A stretch of 40,475 bases of DNA from a virus (taxonomy: Duplodnaviria > Heunggongvirae > Uroviricota > Caudoviricetes), in the IMG/VR virus record IMGVR_UViG_2875713109_000005; one strand, given 5' to 3'. A program made the position numbers and the translations under genes. Shown piece by piece: positions 5,446 through 14,051 of this stretch. Every line of letters starts with the position of its first letter. Position 1 is the first letter of the stretch. The notes under the pieces were generated by a model. The model was given only the letters and a program-made list of their open reading frames with translations, had not been told where the DNA came from and searched no databases.

Positions 5446-5741
5446 AAAATCGTGTTGAGGCCAACGCCCATAATGCGGGCAGTTACCCGGCATCCAACGC
5501 CATTCATGGCCATATCAATGATTTTCTGGTGCGTACCGGGTTGAGAAGCGGTGTAAGTGAACTGCAGTTGCCATGTTTTACGGCAGTGAGAGCAGAGATA
5601 GCGCTGATGTCCGGCGGTGCTTTTGCCGTTACGCACCACCCCGTCAGTAGCTGAACAGGAGGGACAGCTGATAGAAACAGAAGCCACTGGAGCACCTCAA
5701 AAACACCATCATACACTAAATCAGTAAGTTGGCAGCATCAC
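5446..5741 (-). mobile_element. insA: IS1 left-end fragment (IRL plus 5' part of insA)
   Basis: IS1 terminal repeat GGTGATGCTGCCAACTTACTGAT in reverse complement ends at 5741. Encodes InsA N-terminus [40 protein letters not shown]. Joined to IS903 across the N at 5445. Confidence 0.8.
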
Positions 5742-5950
5742 CGATCCCTTCATTTAGTGACTGCCCCTGGGTTTTTCATGCTCTCCTGCGTCCTAGAGAA
5801 CTTGCCAATAACCTACATTATTTTTGCTTTGCCATTACCAATCGTCCTGAACAAGTTCATTTTAAAGCCAAAGCGCTGCCCAACTTTTATCCTCAATACC
5901 ACATCGTCAGCATGAAATAACCTAATCCCTGTGTTGGGATCTTATAATCG

Positions 5951-5969
5951 CTAATGATAATTATTTACA
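5951..5969. promoter_or_regulatory. Candidate Fur box upstream of sitA
   Basis: ctAATGATAATTATTtaca resembles the Fur consensus GATAATGATAATCATTATC. About 75-90 bp upstream of the sitA start. Confidence 0.45.
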
Positions 5970-5987
5970 TTTTATAGCTTCTGCTAT

Positions 5988-6010
5988 AAAACATAGTAGT
6001 TGCTATGTTT
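5988..6010. promoter_or_regulatory. Candidate MntR box (palindrome) upstream of sitA
   Basis: AAACATAG-N6-CTATGTTT perfect inverted repeat, matching the MntR-type palindrome. About 33 bp upstream of the sitA ATG. Confidence 0.5.
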
Positions 6011-6042
6011 ATTCTAATTTTGCTCACTATAGGTACTAAATC

Positions 6043-6957
6043 ATGCTCTCAATAAAAAAAGTAACCATGCTCTTGGGGTGCCTAGTCCTCACCTGCTCGA
6101 TAGCATTTCAGGCGAGTGCAGCTGAAAAATTCAAGGTCATTACAACTTTTACCATCATCGCAGATATGGCCAAAAACGTGGCTGGAGATGCTGCAGAAGT
6201 CTCATCCATAACCAAGCCTGGTGCAGAAATTCATGAGTATCAGCCTACCCCTGGCGATATTAAACGTGCGCAGGGGGCACAACTGATTCTCGCCAATGGT
6301 ATGAATCTGGAATTGTGGTTCCAACGCTTTTACCAGCATCTCAATGGGGTTCCAGAAGTAATTGTCTCTTCGGGTGTGACGCCAGTAGGGATCACCGAAG
6401 GGCCCTATGAGGGCAAACCTAACCCCCATGCCTGGATGTCGCCAGATAATGCTCTGATTTACGTCGATAATATTCGTGATGCGTTTATAAAATACGATCC
6501 GGCAAATGCACAAACCTACCAACGTAATGCCGATACTTATAAAGCCAAGATTACCCAAACCCTTGCCCCCCTGCGTAAGCAGATTGCGGAACTCCCTGAG
6601 AATCAGCGATGGATGGTCACCAGTGAAGGGGCTTTTTCTTATCTCGCACGCGATTTGGGGCTAAAAGAGCTTTATCTGTGGCCGATTAATGCCGATCAAC
6701 AAGGAACACCGCAGCAGGTACGTAAGGTTGTTGATATAGTTAAGAAAAATCATATCCCGGCAGTCTTTAGCGAGAGTACGATTTCCGATAAACCAGCGCG
6801 TCAGGTTGCGCGTGAAACCGGCGCGCACTACGGTGGTGTGCTCTATGTCGATTCCCTGAGCACAGAAAACGGCCCGGTACCTACGTATATCGACCTTCTG
6901 AAGGTTACTACCAGTACGCTGGTACAGGGAATTAAAGCCGGAAAAAGGGAGAAATAA
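6043..6957 (+). CDS. sitA: Mn(II)/Fe(II) ABC transporter periplasmic substrate-binding protein SitA
   Basis: 304 aa with signal peptide ([18 protein letters not shown]). Cluster-9 metal-binding protein by recall; first gene of a four-gene ABC operon with overlapping junctions. Confidence 0.9.
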
Positions 6958-7784
6958 TGATGCAATCTGCAGGCATTGTCGTTAATGATGTTACTGTCAC
7001 CTGGCGTAACGGGCACACAGCACTGCGCGATGCATCCTTCACAGTACCAGGCGGATCTATTGCCGCTCTGGTTGGGGTAAACGGTTCCGGAAAATCGACG
7101 TTGTTTAAAGCGATTATGGGATTTGTGCGTCTGACCAGCGGGAAGATATCTGTTCTGGGTATTCCCACACGACAGGCGCTACAGAAAAACCTGGTTGCCT
7201 ACGTCCCTCAGTCAGAAGAGGTTGACTGGTCATTTCCTGTACTGGTGGAAGATGTGGTGATGATGGGCCGCTATGGGCATATGGGTATGTTGCGTATCGC
7301 CAAAAAGAGGGATCGTCAGATTGTCACCGATGCGCTGGAACGTGTCGATATGGTGGATTTTCGCCATCGACAAATCGGCGAGCTTTCCGGTGGACAAAAG
7401 AAACGCGTCTTTCTGGCGAGAGCGATTGCACAGCAGGGTGATGTGATCCTGCTGGATGAACCTTTTACCGGCGTTGATGTGAAAACCGAAGCGAAAATCA
7501 TCAGCCTGTTGAGGGAGTTACGCGCGGAAGGCAAAACGATGCTTGTCTCAACGCACAATCTCGGATCCGTCACGACATTTTGCGATTATACGGTCATGGT
7601 CAAAGGCACCGTCCTGGCAAGCGGGCCGACAGACACCACTTTTACAGCCGAGAACCTGGAGCTGGCTTTTAGCGGCGTACTGCGCCATGTCACACTTAAC
7701 GGCTCGGAAGAAAGCATTATTACTGACGATGAACGCCCTTTTGTGGCACATCGACCGTCAGCGGTGCAGAGGGAAGAAAGATGA
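6957..7784 (+). CDS. sitB: Mn/Fe ABC transporter ATP-binding protein SitB
   Basis: Walker [13 protein letters not shown] signature LSGGQKKR, Walker B ILLDEP. Start overlaps the sitA stop. Confidence 0.9.
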
Positions 7785-9680: not shown

Positions 9681-9985
9681 GGGGGGCGAGGGCCAGTGAT
9701 GTAAAAAACCACGCTAAGAGTTTAATTAATTGTTTGTATTGAAGTTTAATGATCTTAACTCACCCTTAAGAATATCTTCCGGTAACGAAGACGTATAATG
9801 CCCCAGCATATTTATATGGCTATGTATCAGCAGCGATAATCTTGCCGGATGCTACTCCTCAGGAGTTTCTCCCGATTTGCGAAGATGTGACAACGCCTCC
9901 TGCATGTAAAGTGTGTTTCACAGCACAACCGCATTGGTCACCAGCCCCAGAGCACCTAGTTGATCTTCCTGCCCTTAACGGTAGC
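9681..9985 (-). mobile_element. Degenerate Tn3-family transposon end: 38-bp terminal repeat plus decayed 3' end of a tnpA-like gene
   Basis: GGGGGGCGAGGGCCAGTGATGTAAAAAACCACGCTAAG at 9681-9718 matches the Tn3 IR at 25 of 38 positions by eye. 9860-9990 resembles the 3' end of tnpA at 15235-15340 but carries in-frame stops. Confidence 0.5.
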
Positions 9986-9986
9986 T

Positions 9987-10130
9987 GAAGATGACTGGGC
10001 TGGATGGAAAATCCTGCATGGTGCATTGGGAGAGCAGATAGAATTGGTTGGCGACGATCTGTTTGTGACCAACGTAAAGTATATTCAGCGCGGCATTGAC
10101 GAAAACCTTGCAATCCTTTGTGTATCATTA
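9987..10130 (+). pseudogene. Enolase gene fragment (C-terminal-region codons only)
   Basis: Encodes [40 protein letters not shown], containing the conserved enolase block [10 protein letters not shown]. Diverged from E. coli eno as recalled; no start and no remainder of the gene. Confidence 0.5.
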
Positions 10131-10348
10131 AAATCTTTGTAGTAATCAGATTCCTTTCCATAACTGTCTTCAAGTAACTTTTTTGCTCTTGCAATCCAGT
10201 TATTACCTTTAGCCGAATCAATATATTCCTGGCTTCTGTGACTAAATGCACTTGTTCCCATATATTTTGTCGACATGACAGAATTGTACTCTTGTTCAAG
10301 CACTTCAAATCTTTCAGCTAAGGCCTTCTTCGTCATAGCGCAATCCAA
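10085..10348 (-). CDS. Hypothetical small protein (87 aa)
   Basis: ORF only; AT-rich; no recognisable motif. Its 3' end overlaps the enolase-like fragment on the opposite strand. Confidence 0.3.
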
Positions 10349-10505
10349 ATTATATGCTAATAATACCTGTGAATTTTAATATTCTACCATATCTGGCTTT
10401 CTTCCGTTCACATTGGACATTCAGGTAATTTCGTCCAGTTCTGCTGGCTGTGCTGGAGCTAGCCTGGTATAATTTAACCAGCCATTTCAACAGCGGTGGT
10501 GTCTT

Positions 10506-10700
10506 ATGAACGTCAAGAACATGTTTTACGGTGCCATTCTGGTAAGTGCTGTATGGGCGGTTATTTTGCTCTCATGGTTTGAATCCAGCCTTACCTTAAG
10601 CGATTACCTCAGGTACGAATCGGTAATCCTGATCCCATGCCTGCTGTGGGTTGCTGTTTATGGGTTAGGTAAACGTTACCTCCAAAGAACATCAAACTAG
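10506..10700 (+). CDS. Hypothetical small membrane protein (64 aa)
   Basis: GGTGGTG RBS-like sequence before the ATG and a TATAAT hexamer at 10468-10473. Two hydrophobic segments. Followed by the hairpin at 10733-10765. Confidence 0.35.
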   Translation: MNVKNMFYGAILVSAVWAVILLSWFESSLTLSDYLRYESVILIPCLLWVAVYGLGKRYLQRTSN

Positions 10701-10732
10701 CCGCGCCAGCGACTTTTTTTACACCTTCGTTT

Positions 10733-10765
10733 AATTCCCTGGCTCACCTGGACAGCCAGGGAATT
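10733..10765. terminator. Hairpin between convergent genes (possible bidirectional terminator)
   Basis: Perfect 12-bp inverted repeat AATTCCCTGGCT / AGCCAGGGAATT with a 9-nt loop. Confidence 0.45.
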
Positions 10766-10775
10766 CTGCCCAGCG

Positions 10776-11255
10776 CTACTGGCTTGCTGTGCCAAACTTT
10801 CCGTTGCAGATTTCCTCATTCACAATGGCCTGAAACATGGAAACAGAATTTCTAGCCTTATCCCTCAGTGCATTAATGAGTTCTGTGTCGTGTATTTTGT
10901 TGTAGAAAATGAAAGTAGAAACATCAAACTGGAGTTTAAATGCTGCTTTCCTTATGGCTAAACCTGACGTGATCGTTATCTCATTATGTATGCGAAGATA
11001 GGCAAGATAATCATCGTTATTTGCTTCACACTGCTCATATAAATATTTTTGCATGAGAGATTGAGACAAGGCCAGAAATTCCACATATCGTTTGGTTTTT
11101 ATTTCTTTATCTTTTAATCCCTGTACTGCCGCTTCTTTTTTTAATTCGTGCTTTTGTGTTAGCTTAAGAGTCAGCCACCCCCCTAAAATAGTCAGCAACG
11201 ACCCCAAACCTATTTTTACGGCATTATCAGCCACATCCACCCACTCAGTCGCCAT
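10776..11255 (-). CDS. Hypothetical membrane-anchored protein (159 aa)
   Basis: N-terminal TM segment (IGLGSLLTILGGWLTL) then a charged, helical soluble domain. AT-rich; no recognisable catalytic motif. Confidence 0.5.
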   Translation of the reverse strand: MATEWVDVADNAVKIGLGSLLTILGGWLTLKLTQKHELKKEAAVQGLKDKEIKTKRYVEFLALSQSLMQKYLYEQCEANNDDYLAYLRIHNEITITSGLAIRKAAFKLQFDVSTFIFYNKIHDTELINALRDKARNSVSMFQAIVNEEICNGKFGTASQ

Positions 11256-11372
11256 CTGTTACTCGTTCTTCCTGTGATGATCATGGTTGCCAGTATAATT
11301 CCAGCACAGACTGGACGTACAGCATTTTCTGTCCAGTAGACAGACTGTTACACTCAGGATAGGATAGCTTCT

Positions 11373-11822
11373 ATGGTTAAATTTCCAGGTGAAGTTATGA
11401 GTTCGTCCGCTGCTGTAACCGTTATAACTGGTGTTCTTGTTTTTGTTGGTGGTCAGCTCATTGTAAAGAGCGCGATTGAACCTTATATAGAATTCAAGAA
11501 ACAATTGGGAAAAATATCAAATCTGCTATTAGCTAACCAAGCTAAATTAGCTAATCCTTGTGCTGTTGAAATGTCTGAGATCATCCATGAGTTGAAAGAT
11601 GCCGCAGCTCAGTTAATGTCGAAGCATTCAGCTTTGCCTTTCTATATCAAAAAATTCCATATCGGATTCCGCTTTGTTCCATCAACGCCTGAAATTATTA
11701 GTTCGGCGCAAAAATTGAATTTGATAGCATCAATACATGAAGGTAAAAGCAAGGAAAGTACATATGAGCACATAGCCGAGATTGGACGTATGCTCAAAAT
11801 CCCAACCACCTATTCTCTTTAA
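11373..11822 (+). CDS. Hypothetical membrane-anchored protein (149 aa; start may be the internal Met at 11397)
   Basis: N-terminal TM segment (AAVTVITGVLVFVGGQLIV) plus soluble domain. Followed by a terminator-like hairpin. Confidence 0.5.
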   Translation: MVKFPGEVMSSSAAVTVITGVLVFVGGQLIVKSAIEPYIEFKKQLGKISNLLLANQAKLANPCAVEMSEIIHELKDAAAQLMSKHSALPFYIKKFHIGFRFVPSTPEIISSAQKLNLIASIHEGKSKESTYEHIAEIGRMLKIPTTYSL

Positions 11823-11881
11823 TCTTCACGCCGATCAGATTACATAATCCACGCGCCACCTGGACATTCAGGTAAAAAAGT

Positions 11882-11905
11882 CCAACTGGTGAGGTTGGGC
11901 TTTTT
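11882..11905 (+). terminator. Putative intrinsic terminator after the 11373-11822 gene
   Basis: CCAAC-TGGTGAG-GTTGG stem-loop followed by GCTTTTT. Confidence 0.45.
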
Positions 11906-11995
11906 GGCTTTCCGGTTCTGTTGGTGGCTATGACCGGAGAAAATTGCTCTACACCTAACGCTTACATTTTATTTACAGCGTTTGATATCTTCCTC

Positions 11996-12040
11996 GCCTT
12001 TAACGCCTTTAACGCCTTTAACGCCTTTAACGCCTTTAAG
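11996..12040. repeat. Tandem 9-bp repeat (GCCTTTAAC, about five copies)
   Basis: Direct read: gcctttaac four times then gcctttaag, immediately followed by a GGGGGG run. Confidence 0.75.
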
Positions 12041-12448
12041 GGGGGAAGATAGAGCAACTCACCGATGATGAATAAAGTGGACGAAGAGACGATAACTACA
12101 CTCCCATCCAGGGGGGGGGCTTTTTTTGTGGTACTGTAGTGTGGGAGTAAGTTCGGGTCTCATATTGAATGAGGCGATTGCGAGCTGCCTTTCATCGAAA
12201 ACTAATGTCCATTGTCATTGTATTGTCTGACTCTATCTCGTAACAAGTCTTTGACACAAAGTTTTATATTTTTATCAAAGTGGACATGAGGGGAATTAAA
12301 TTTGTGATCTTTTTCAAATAATGTGTTCTTGATAGTAGATTCTGGTTAGTGATATCTATTAACAATATATTAAATTTCTTTTGTATTATCGCTGATAAAA
12401 CTACTGTATTGGTATACTATATATTATTGAGTAACAGGAGATATCACT

Positions 12449-13951
12449 ATGAAGAAATTTTATCAATTTAGGGATGAACAGCGAAAGGAGCTTGAACAAC
12501 ATGATTTTTATAGTTTGATTTCTTCAGATTGTATAGCGTTGAAAGACAAACTATTATTTGCTCCTGTTATGGCTCATTTCATAATGAACTTCAGAGACAT
12601 GAATAAATGGGTTATCAGGTTTGATAACAATGATAATGAATATAAATCTGTTATAAACGGTGGAACAATCGAGGATGAAACACATTCAAGATTGTTTCTG
12701 GAAGACTGGAGGAAACTATATATAGATGACAAACTTAACTGGAAAGCAAGTGATGTTATATACTGGTTGTTTATTAGTCGAGAAATGGAGTGTTTCCGAA
12801 AATTTGGTATTGATTTTATGAGACTTTGTGTAGATGATGGAGGAGACCCAATACTTCGATATTCTCACTCCGAGTCAGGAGAAACTTGCGGTAATATATT
12901 CTTTTCAAGAATTAGTCCTATTGCTGATCAAGTTGCCAATCATTTGGGAATATCACTCCGTTATTTTGGAACATTTCACCTTAATCTTGAAAATGGACAT
13001 GTATGGAAGTCAGAAGGTGTTTTTGAAAATATAGAGTTGTCACCAGATTCTTATAAGAAAATGGCTACTCTATCAAAGAGAATGTTTGATATATTTGAAG
13101 GAATTCATGACTCTTTTTATAATTACCTGTCCAGTTATGTTCTTAATGGAAGTCATCCGTCATTTTTTGAATCATTACCTGTAGGGAAAAATGTTGCACC
13201 TATATACCCTGAATTTGTGATAGAAAACAAAAGCCATAACGATGGTAGACATATTGAACATATAAACAATTACCTGGAAAAAATATCGAGTCATGAGTTC
13301 TTTAAATGGCTGATTAACACCTCAATAGACCCTCAATTGAAATTGAAAAGTTTCATACCTCTTTGGATTGTTGATATTATGGGGTATAGAGATATTAATA
13401 AATATGTTTTTACATATGAACAGCCTGAATCAGAAAGTGAAAAGATTATAAATGATTATGCATTACACTTGTCAGAGCATAGCCGTTTATTTTATCATGA
13501 CTGGAAGTCACTTCAACTTGATGATATGTTACGTTGGAGTGCCAGTGATACTCTTGAGTTTATTTTTCTTAATTCAGATATGGATATGCATAGAGAAAAT
13601 ATAGTTAAGTTTTCTTTGTTCGGATTAAAACACAGAGATCCTGTTATCAGGTTCTGGTTTATGATGATACTGGAGTTAAGTGGAAAAGAATTTTTCTCTC
13701 ATGTTGGAGATATAGCTTTACAGGTGGAAAGTAAATATAATATTTATCTCCCATATTTATGTGGACGCCATGCAACAGAAAATGAGCATGAAGCATATAA
13801 TAATATGTATGAGCATTTTATGGTAAAGGAACTTAGCCCTGAACAAAGTGATCTAATAATACAAATTACAGACATGGTTATGCGGTCATTATTGAATAAT
13901 TTGGATATCTCATATCGATATGTAGTAAATAATTTATTGGCAGCTCGTTAG
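12449..13951 (+). CDS. Orphan 500-aa protein of unknown function with internal two-fold duplication
   Basis: Very AT-rich ORF with a GGAG-type RBS-like sequence upstream. Residues about 74-135 (THSRLFLEDWRKLYIDDKLNWKASD...) are repeated at about 340-400 (EHSRLFYHDWKSLQLDDMLRWSASD...). Terminator-like hairpin follows. Confidence 0.7.
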   Translation: MKKFYQFRDEQRKELEQHDFYSLISSDCIALKDKLLFAPVMAHFIMNFRDMNKWVIRFDNNDNEYKSVINGGTIEDETHSRLFLEDWRKLYIDDKLNWKASDVIYWLFISREMECFRKFGIDFMRLCVDDGGDPILRYSHSESGETCGNIFFSRISPIADQVANHLGISLRYFGTFHLNLENGHVWKSEGVFENIELSPDSYKKMATLSKRMFDIFEGIHDSFYNYLSSYVLNGSHPSFFESLPVGKNVAPIYPEFVIENKSHNDGRHIEHINNYLEKISSHEFFKWLINTSIDPQLKLKSFIPLWIVDIMGYRDINKYVFTYEQPESESEKIINDYALHLSEHSRLFYHDWKSLQLDDMLRWSASDTLEFIFLNSDMDMHRENIVKFSLFGLKHRDPVIRFWFMMILELSGKEFFSHVGDIALQVESKYNIYLPYLCGRHATENEHEAYNNMYEHFMVKELSPEQSDLIIQITDMVMRSLLNNLDISYRYVVNNLLAAR

Positions 13952-13984
13952 AAGAACAGCATTGGTATGACTCTGATGCTCCTT

Positions 13985-14015
13985 AAAATCCCACTTTTCA
14001 GAGTGGGATTTGTTT
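13985..14015 (+). terminator. Putative intrinsic terminator after the 500-aa orphan gene
   Basis: AATCCCACT-TTTCAG-AGTGGGATT stem-loop followed by TGTTT. Confidence 0.55.
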
Positions 14016-14051
14016 AATGCCCAGAACAGGGGGAATTTCCATTCATGCCCA

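Follow-up and report, generated by a model that had tools for sequence, protein, structure and literature searches.

The window, a stretch of 40,475 nucleotides from a Caudoviricetes record of IMG/VR (IMGVR_UViG_2875713109_000005), carries a segment of small genes beside sitABCD at 10110–14051, and a 26-bp dyad lies in every intergenic gap of the gene cluster in its left part. With moderate confidence, this segment is explained as a site-specific, integron-like cassette array on a fragment of IncX4 type, in which the recombinase has been lost. In the proposed arrangement, the 26-bp sites point in the same direction throughout and would separate single-gene cassettes of either orientation. The cassettes would be joined by site-specific strand exchange between nucleotides 16 and 17 of the site, and each cassette would begin with TTCTGTCCAG and end with CTGGACAnnCAGGTnA. 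Most cassettes would carry their own promoter, and the array would grow at a terminal site beside the gene of a ResD-family tyrosine recombinase. The genes for proteins of 64, 159 and 141 amino acids (aa) would be three independent cassettes. Their products are predicted to be small inner-membrane-anchored proteins, most likely serving phage or plasmid exclusion or defence at the membrane.

Sequence, copies and orientation of the dyad

The first-pass annotation of the window had reported a 15-mer followed by an inverted GTCCA partner in two copies, and both copies were recovered. The 15-mer TGGACATTCAGGTAA occurs exactly at 10414–10428 and 11861–11875 and nowhere else in the window, and the GTCCA partners follow at 10433–10437 and 11880–11884. 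The chance expectation for the 15-mer was about 0.12 matches even with two mismatches allowed. The spaced pattern TGGAC-N14-GTCCA was found exactly three times (10414, 11312 and 11861) and once with a single mismatch (10749), all four copies lying inside 1.5 kb. A weight matrix for the dyad was built from 28 copies and used with a cut-off score of 14. Four 26-bp dyads (W1–W4), all on the plus strand, were identified in the 40-kb window, and no other position of the window reached the cut-off.

The 15-mer is the core, or left part, of the dyad, whose 26-bp consensus is CTGGACATTCAGGTAA/TTCTGTCCAG, where the slash stands for the junction between nucleotides 16 and 17. Across plasmids and contigs the consensus reads CTGGACATTCAGGTAATTCTGTCCAG, often with a TAAT(T)CC box 8–10 bp upstream. 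The site has a 10-6-10 layout, with the arm CTGGACATTC, the centre AGGTAA and the arm TTCTGTCCAG, and the arms are symmetric at seven of ten positions. Core sites of tyrosine recombinases usually have such an arm-centre-arm arrangement. W1 (10413–10438, score 38.7) reads TTGGACATTCAGGTAA/TTTCGTCCAG, with its junction at 10428/10429; W2 (10748–10773, score 30.1) reads CTGGACAGCCAGGGAA/TTCTGCCCAG, with its junction at 10763/10764. W3 (11311–11336, score 28.9) reads CTGGACGTACAGCATT/TTCTGTCCAG, with its junction at 11326/11327; it separates the divergent 159-aa and 141-aa genes, and the box AGTATAATTCC (11292–11302) is found upstream of it. W4 (11860–11885, score 26.5) is a hybrid, CTGGACATTCAGGTAA/AAAAGTCCAA, with its junction at 11875/11876: the left 16 nucleotides are canonical, and the right part is the terminator stem of an AgrB-like RNA.

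The distribution of the dyad was explored in plasmid and contig collections. The core, often with unrelated flanks, is present in IncX1, IncX4, pKpQIL-like IncF(K) and microcin plasmids and in an IMG/VR viral contig. It was also encountered on contigs of plasmid size from Citrobacter, Dryocola, Serratia, Erwinia, Pantoea, Intestinirhabdus and Y. pestis. A pKpQIL-like Klebsiella plasmid gave three matrix hits, and a fourth copy was seen by eye. More than 1000 PLSDB plasmids matched a 101-bp query around W1. The first-pass annotation had allowed that the motif might be a common repetitive element unrelated to the locus; repeated it is, in more than 1000 plasmids, yet its copies are associated with loci of this type. 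A pattern scan of contigs returned 50 matches against about 70 expected by chance; nine of the loci were enterobacterial, and the rest, outside the Enterobacterales, were mostly chance matches. Moreover, 41 control loci from taxa without an Enterobacterales name contained only the seeded chance match and no second copy. The weight-matrix scan found no dyad in F, R46, P2-like prophages or D6-like phage-plasmids.

The orientation of the sites was uniform. In 17 of 17 loci with at least two sites, all array sites have the same orientation, and the genes face either way. The sole reversed hit was one weak and distant match in an IncX4 plasmid (pN17S0990-2, L077).

Changes in the arms were one-sided in 75 cases and both-sided in seven. 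The arms are therefore conserved as sequence and not as a hairpin. This result bears on the suggestion that the dyad works as a folded hairpin of RNA or single-stranded DNA, either as a terminator, as a processing site or as the site of an HUH-type transposase like REP/RAYT. The 7-bp inverted-repeat arms with a conserved loop would suit such a fold, as would the intergenic position of the copies and the overlap of W4 with a real terminator. However, only the seven two-sided changes were compensatory, no T-run follows the dyad, and the exchange junction described below lies inside the dyad instead of beside a hairpin. In addition, the inconstant orientation relative to the flanking genes makes a role at the transcript level unlikely, and the gene lists of the examined loci showed no HUH transposase. 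A hairpin function is hence considered highly improbable.

Two irregular loci were noted. At about 700–780 of the IncX4 plasmid pCFSAN000111_01 (L076), after a 59-aa membrane open reading frame (ORF) beside dqlB, a partial site was found in which the cassette 3' end TTTTTTACGCCTCTCGTTTAATTCCTCGCC is joined straight to the right arm ATTCTGTCCAG, with the left arm and the centre missing. An Erwinia billingiae island (L002, 4400–6000) carries several dyads in one orientation. There, a direct repeat of about 50–250 bp occupies the intergenic region upstream of a 158-aa homologue of the 159-aa protein, and the locus adjoins an HNH_2 gene and an ImuB-like gene.

Cassette junctions and the crossover position

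In related arrays, up to seven direct copies of the dyad delimit single-gene cassettes. BLAST homology of the window to other plasmids begins or ends at the dyad edges, with recurrent breakpoints at 10413/10414, 10437/10443, 10734/10749, 10772/10782, 11300 and 11335. The left flank of W1, a dyad with BLAST breakpoints at its edges, is joined to another right-hand cassette in an IncX1 plasmid (L075), and the right flank of W2 is preceded by other left-hand cassettes in L075 and L073. The left side of W3, which holds the start of the 159-aa gene, is joined to five different right sides (in L006, L077/L082, L075, L073 and L076). The right half of W4 stands behind a different left half at 5507 of the Escherichia albertii IncX4 plasmid (L080). 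The 64-aa cassette gives an example of such an exchange. In the window and in two IncX4 plasmids (L077 and L082), it is flanked by a nuclease gene and the 159-aa gene. In the IncX1 plasmid pFORC74_3, a 112-aa gene replaces it between the same two neighbours, and in the IncX4 plasmid L076 it is found amid quite different neighbours.

These exchanges bear directly on the first-pass annotation, in which the cluster was taken as one abortive-infection or exclusion module delimited by the repeat pair. The AT-rich cargo on a plasmid, the defence and toxin–antitoxin genes in sister arrays, and a Pantoea contig with adjacent remnants of the 159-aa and 141-aa families, arranged divergently as in the window, would be in keeping with a module. 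However, the cluster is not enclosed by one pair of motif copies: there are four repeats instead of two, one separating each gene from the next, and each gene forms its own cassette. Furthermore, the 159-aa and 141-aa families share no relationship and are mostly found at separate loci, the 64-aa cassette is exchanged as described above, and no defence-model match was obtained. A single module is thus regarded as distinctly unlikely.

The position of the junction was mapped with all site pairs in which one flank was common and the other flank different. For pairs with the same left flank (n = 18), 34 of 51 mismatches were located at positions 19–26. For pairs with the same right flank (n = 26), 96 of 119 mismatches were located at positions 1–16, and none at 17–18. 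The L077/L080 pair placed the junction at or to the left of the step between nucleotides 16 and 17, and the L076/L081 and L077/L081 pairs placed it at or to the right of the same step. The combined bounds therefore fix the junction exactly at this step, where the 6-bp centre meets the right arm; the window/L080 pair fits, with a junction at or to the right of the step between 15 and 16. The 6-bp centre differs between sites and always stays with the left-hand cassette. As judged from these alignments, this behaviour would fit the exchange of one strand pair at a constant position. The hybrid W4, in which a canonical left part meets a terminator stem, looks like the product of recombination into a secondary site.

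The same data were weighed against an operator function, in which the dyad would bind a transcription factor that co-regulates accessory genes, comparable to the CUP element and ArdK of IncN plasmids, and the shuffling would result from occasional homologous recombination in a conserved operator or promoter. A promoter-like sequence lies 1–30 bp after the dyad in many copies, for example TGGTATAAT after W1, TAGACA-17-TAGGAT after W3 and TTGCAA-17-TATATT in L053/L063. Moreover, W3 would overlap the -35 region of the promoter of the 159-aa gene, and arms kept as sequence and not by pairing fit the binding of a protein to duplex DNA. On the other hand, a site of two-fold symmetry leaves the uniform orientation unexplained where the genes face either way. 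The operator model also leaves unexplained the constant crossover between nucleotides 16 and 17 and the hybrid AgrB-terminator junctions (W4, and 5507 of L080). No candidate regulator is conserved near the arrays, and the CUP-carrying IncN plasmid R46 has no dyad copy; a scan of its 50 kb with the weight matrix and the degenerate dyad gave no hit, and the IncN CUP repeat was accordingly rejected as an identity of the dyad. An operator in place of a recombination site is therefore rather unlikely. The F protein ResD (the D protein) was reported to be both a repressor and a resolvase, and both roles of the dyad could coexist.

Origin of the segment, candidate recombinase and known systems

The region is 100% identical to many sitABCD-carrying Escherichia coli IncF plasmids, with matches at 1427 plasmid and 19 chromosome places. 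In one such plasmid, the RefSeq order after sitD is a Tn3-transposase fragment, an enolase fragment, a "malate dehydrogenase" pseudogene, three "hypothetical proteins" and IS1. The GC content is 0.41 at 10110–11907 and 0.37 at 10110–14051 against 0.50 in sitABCD, and the cluster is thus AT-rich, as the first-pass annotation had stated. Overall, 10110–14051 shows 98–99.5% identity to IncX4 plasmids. Window 10110–11335 corresponds to the IncX4 plasmid pN17S0990-2 (L077), with 99.5% identity over 10300–10900, and the IncX1 plasmid pFORC74_3 covers 10110–11335 at 96.9% identity (BLAST). Window 11863–14051 is 98.1% identical to 5510–7703 of the E. albertii IncX4 plasmid (L080), and the 141-aa cassette is placed between the two IncX4-like pieces. 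The 159-aa protein is present under the identical accession, WP_000190053.1, and in the same gene order in the Citrobacter rodentium IncX4 plasmid pCRTS (L082). These matches therefore mark 10110–14051 as a fragment of an IncX4-type plasmid cassette array, which by its sequence setting now lies beside sitABCD on an IncF plasmid. The left end of the segment is cut by the enolase fragment; on the right, the homology stops at 14051, after which IS1 follows in related plasmids. Between sitD and the array, at about 9726–10112, a scar was noted with a Tn3-family transposase fragment (minus strand) and a 132-bp internal enolase fragment (plus strand), the latter abutting the truncated nuclease gene.

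In IncX4 plasmids, the arrays form the variable part between hns/topB and the gene of a tyrosine recombinase of 271–274 aa. Without exception the terminal dyad closes the array, a 33-bp long dyad (TGGACA-N21-TGTCCA) follows after about 130 bp, and the recombinase gene comes about 100 bp further on; the array ends about 290 bp upstream of this ResD-family gene. The layout of array, terminal dyad, long dyad and recombinase was present in the IncX4 loci L076, L077 and L080–L082 and in two metagenome contigs (L085 and L086), both of which were retrieved through the dyad alone. The smallest plasmid, p86-24-2 (L081), has a single terminal dyad only. A comparison of L076 with L081 showed that 6.7 kb of cassettes replaces a 171-bp segment and that, on the right, the two plasmids are homologous again from the first base of the terminal dyad onwards. 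ResD-family recombinases beside related arrays are 45–85% identical to F ResD, with about 49% for the IncX4 enzyme and 85% for the "integrase" of pKpQIL-like Klebsiella plasmids. In L020, L027, L053 and L062, among them contigs of Citrobacter, Intestinirhabdus and Erwinia retrieved by the motif alone, a ResD-family gene is likewise located within a few kb of dyads.

The long dyad (core ..TATCGGAAAAAATGTCCA) was found at L020 6493, L027 2960, L064 1504, L076 7424, L077 7167, L080–L082 8867, L085 167, L086 7220 and L087 3397. It mostly lies between the last 26-bp dyad and the ResD-family gene; no recombinase was found in L064 and L087. It is upstream of the recombinase gene in IncX4 plasmids and downstream in pKpQIL-type plasmids. 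The long dyad may serve in primary attachment or in regulation.

Several points weigh against a site-specific array served by such an enzyme. No recombinase gene was recognised in the window. Beside the terminal dyad, IncX1 and microcin plasmids carry a serine resolvase and not a tyrosine recombinase; the IncX4 recombinase gave no match to the IncX1 locus L075 in a tblastn search. The ResD gene of pKpQIL-like plasmids has a canonical rfsF upstream, with a sequence unrelated to the dyad. The compared arrays are partly homologous to each other, and some of the junction comparisons are therefore non-independent. The promoter that often follows the dyad makes an operator role conceivable, also or instead. 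Homologues of the cassette genes occur in settings without dyads, namely the slot between Phage_tail_S and the baseplate V/spike gene of P2-like prophages for the 159-aa family and D6-like phage-plasmids for the 141-aa family. None of the cluster proteins matches a known abortive-infection or exclusion family in PADLOC or the functionally annotated PHROGs. Finally, homologous recombination in the short conserved core might mimic a modular exchange; it is disfavoured because the single fixed crossover and the hybrid W4 are not predicted by it. As to the enzyme, caution is called for by the abundance of ResD-family genes on plasmids (at least 5000 PLSDB records). Given this ubiquity, the serine resolvase of IncX1 and microcin plasmids and the lack of a recombinase in the window, the ResD-family enzyme is therefore put forward as a working hypothesis for the responsible recombinase.

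The dyad and its arrays were compared with known systems. The rfsF site has a 10+8+10 inverted-repeat core with exchange in the spacer, fuses replicons and marks module switches (PMC8299605, PMC8004404, PMC9412624). The dyad resembles it in its inverted-repeat core, and recombinases of the ResD family stand beside the IncX4 and pKpQIL-like arrays, with the identities to F ResD given above. The sequences differ, however, since rfsF reads AGATCCGNAA-N8-TTNCGGATCT and the dyad CTGGACATTC-AGGTAA-TTCTGTCCAG, and rfsF was rejected as an identity on this ground. The rfsF core AGATCCGNAANNNNNNNNTTNCGGATCT (PMC8299605) gave no match with up to four mismatches in the window, L072, L075, L076 and L077; exact matches occur in F and L020, and in pKpQIL-type plasmids rfsF precedes the resD operon. 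Moreover, rfsF is usually single-copy, whereas the dyads reach up to seven direct copies, and the centre of the dyad, which stays with the left cassette, would imply exchange at one edge.

In common with integrons, the arrays consist of single-gene cassettes that each end in a recombination site, with one orientation and a fixed junction nucleotide, and their cargo is rich in toxin–antitoxin and defence genes. The IncX4 array also abuts a tyrosine recombinase and a distinct terminal site, which is not so in the window, where no recombinase is present. Unlike in integrons, the neighbouring recombinase is not IntI (TIGR02249 gave 58.7 bits where the cut-off is 265, and NF011946 gave 45.6 where it is 435), and many cassettes have their own promoters and face either way. 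The attC sites of integrons measure 57–141 bp and are conserved in structure rather than in sequence; the dyad is a sequence-conserved 26-mer without the attC R''/L''/L'/R' structure or GTTRRRY. An attC-like GTCCAAC...GTTGGGC at 11880–11900 was identified as the AgrB terminator instead.

The pdif modules of Acinetobacter plasmids are bounded by XerC/XerD sites of 11-6-11 layout in alternating orientation. They are likewise small modules with resistance genes, toxin–antitoxin genes or small ORFs, bounded by short resolution-type sites and shuffled among plasmids. The dyads differ in being all direct and, as compared by eye with the general features of pdif sites, in having no arm like dif or cer. 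The CUP element is similar in being a repeated, promoter-bearing element upstream of several small accessory genes of plasmids (PMC6289460). It has no sequence relation to the dyad, as R46 gave no matrix hit; CUPs are longer and act as ArdK operators, whereas the dyad has a fixed crossover point and adjoins recombinase genes. CUPs were reportedly proposed as a recombination hot spot by Delver and Belogurov in 1997. Sigma-54 and sigma-E promoters, LexA, CRP, IHF and RcsB boxes, the P2 Ogr-type late-promoter dyad, a serine-resolvase res subsite and an Xer site were rejected by eye on spacing or sequence against their consensus.

By enzyme family, the closest relative of the proposed system would be ResD/rfsF, and its working mode would resemble an integron or a pdif module. 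No earlier description of the dyad, or of pdif-like or integron-like systems in IncX plasmids, was found in a literature search of incomplete coverage, in which the motif string matched only unrelated primers, and the element is apparently undescribed so far. From sequence comparison, it appears to mark an oriented, precisely recombining cassette array that is widespread in enterobacterial plasmids. More tentatively, and with less confidence than is given to the array in the window, an unrecognised integron-like platform for gene capture may exist in Enterobacterales plasmids (IncX4, IncX1 and pKpQIL-type IncF). In such a platform, a ResD-family recombinase would insert and excise single-gene cassettes with their own promoters at a 26-bp 10-6-10 site, with exchange at one edge of the centre. 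The arrays would then be exchangeable islands of defence, toxin–antitoxin and membrane-protein genes, fragments of which are scattered onto other plasmids.

Should the dyads truly be recombination sites, a system dedicated to cassette exchange and distinct from integrons and insertion sequences would exist in plasmids of clinical importance (IncX4, IncX1, pKpQIL-like IncF(K) and ColV-type IncF). IncX4 plasmids are the main vector of mcr-1, and such a system would account for their hypervariable region between hns/topB and the recombinase. ResD-type "resolvases" would then have gene capture as a function beyond multimer resolution. The sequence rule TTCTGTCCAG ... CTGGACAnnCAGGTnA delimits cassettes and lets defence and exclusion genes be mined; the 159-aa, 141-aa, 64-aa and 500-aa orphans are nominated as cargo candidates. 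Even as an operator only, the dyad defines a widespread set of co-regulated plasmid accessory genes.

Cassette genes, array cargo and further features

The sister arrays carry defence and toxin–antitoxin genes. The defence cargo includes AbiD (PADLOC, E = 8.5e-61), an OLD/GajA-like ATPase, an AAA_13/PDC-S06 fragment and one or two nucleases of DpnII/MboI fold, and the toxin–antitoxin cargo includes HigBA, a RelB-like gene, PemK and DinQ/AgrB. At 1118–3634 of L076 (minus strand), the gene of a 169-aa protein from the 159-aa family precedes that of a 633-aa OLD/GajA-like ATPase by 106 bp in the same orientation. No dyad separates the two genes, which may form a two-gene defence cassette. A homologue of the 159-aa family also occupies the accessory ("moron") slot of prophages between the tail genes S and V. 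In P2-like Enterobacter prophages (L009–L011, 6001–6561), this homologue is a 186-aa protein, 62% identical to the 159-aa protein and encoded by a lone gene on the opposite strand. The cluster proteins are small and membrane-anchored without an enzymatic domain, like the moron and exclusion proteins (P2 old/tin/fun, HK97 gp15), but they show no sequence or specific fold similarity to a characterised exclusion protein. A defence or exclusion role of the membrane proteins is plausible from the neighbouring genes. The abortive-infection suggestion of the first-pass annotation is consequently retained in part: the cargo of the sister arrays, the P2-like slot and the occurrence of the 141-aa family in D6 speak for it, while the single module and a match to a known family were not found.

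The three small ORFs named in the first-pass annotation exist, with 64 aa at 10506–10700 (plus strand), 159 aa at 10776–11255 (minus strand) and 149 aa at 11373–11822 (plus strand). No match was obtained for the 159-aa, 149-aa, 64-aa and 500-aa proteins in Pfam, NCBIfam and PADLOC, and none in PHROGs for the 159-aa, 64-aa and 500-aa proteins. The claim that they lack recognisable domains holds in these databases, except that the 141-aa protein, the shorter form of the 149-aa ORF, matches phrog_7512, a family of unknown function (E = 3e-60). The claim of N-terminal transmembrane anchors is borne out by clear hydrophobic segments at the N-termini of the 141-aa and 64-aa proteins, and the 159-aa protein is borderline.

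The 64-aa cassette occupies 10429–10763 (plus strand), and hydropathy indicated two hydrophobic segments in the product. It contains the extended -10 promoter TGGTATAAT at 10465–10473, a terminator-like hairpin with a T-run at about 10699–10720 and the box TTTAATTCCC at 10730–10739. The ORF is 97% conserved with the IncX4 copy, with four synonymous changes and one non-synonymous change, and the promoter region diverges far more. The mostly synonymous changes support a real coding gene.

The 159-aa gene (WP_000190053.1; 10776–11255, minus strand) lies in a cassette at 10764–11326, and its product has an N-terminal hydrophobic helix followed by a four-helix bundle. No 19-residue window of the N-terminal stretch reaches a Kyte-Doolittle mean of 1.6, the best value being about 1.5 by hand calculation; the N-terminus is the most conserved part of the protein. 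The protein has 65 close relatives, and all those with a name belong to the Enterobacterales. A profile search of 1.84 billion representatives gave 245 relatives, of which the listed ones are nearly all about 50–230 aa long, with one outlier of 3694 aa; ten remote relatives scanned against Pfam gave no family match. Members of the family were located in the Erwinia island, beside repA on IncFII plasmids and in P2-like Enterobacter prophages. The family is often misnamed "peptidase M14", a name without support from a domain match.

The 141-aa gene (WP_012300440.1; 11397–11822, plus strand) lies in a cassette at 11327–11875, and its product has an N-terminal transmembrane helix followed by a helical bundle. 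The true start of the 149-aa ORF is most likely 11397, which has the ribosome-binding site AGGTGA and is the RefSeq start and the start of all homologues. The promoter-like TAGACA-17-TAGGAT upstream of the gene is located at 11337–11365. Homologues were located in D6-like phage-plasmids and a microcin-C-type plasmid. The protein has 33 relatives, is 67% identical to a protein of the phage-plasmid D6 and gave a sub-threshold CARF hit (E = 0.022). The 159-aa and 141-aa proteins are both conserved membrane-anchored four-helix bundles without a match to a functionally annotated family. Their being paralogues was ruled out (E = 0.17), and the only co-occurrence of the families seen besides the window is at 628–1397 of the Pantoea contig (L064), around a dyad of the W3 type.

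To the left of W1, the fourth ORF of the cluster (87 aa, 10085–10348, minus strand) is the 5' part of a gene for a 263-aa nuclease of DpnII/MboI fold, which is intact in the IncX1/IncX4 loci L072, L077 and L082. The remnant (10109–10336, minus strand) retains about 76 of the 263 codons and is cut at about 10110 by the enolase fragment, where a BLAST breakpoint lies. The intact protein matches PF18742 of Pfam (E = 8e-50) and Aga_Helical-REase of PADLOC (E = 6e-29). The RefSeq pseudogene label "malate dehydrogenase" belongs to this remnant and is likewise not supported by a domain match.

An AgrB-like antisense RNA was detected at 11872–11958 on the minus strand (Rfam RF02891, 46 bits against a gathering score of 40, E = 7e-6). 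In this the segment resembles DinQ/AgrB systems; it differs in that no DinQ/DqlB toxin ORF was found in the window, where tblastn with DqlB from L079 gave nothing significant. In the IncX4 plasmid L080, there is one agrB-like copy on each side of the 500-aa gene, and dqlB comes after the second copy.

The 500-aa orphan (12449–13951, plus strand) lies within the IncX4-type segment and is 99.6% identical at the protein level to the protein of the E. albertii IncX4 array. It is an internal duplication with halves that are 32% identical (E = 3e-25), and the surrounding GC content is about 32%. Upstream of it, five tandem copies of CGCCTTTAA lie at 11995–12039 inside a spurious 43-aa ORF, and about 70 bp after them, at 12111–12119, a run of nine G residues with a T-run forms a terminator-like sequence.

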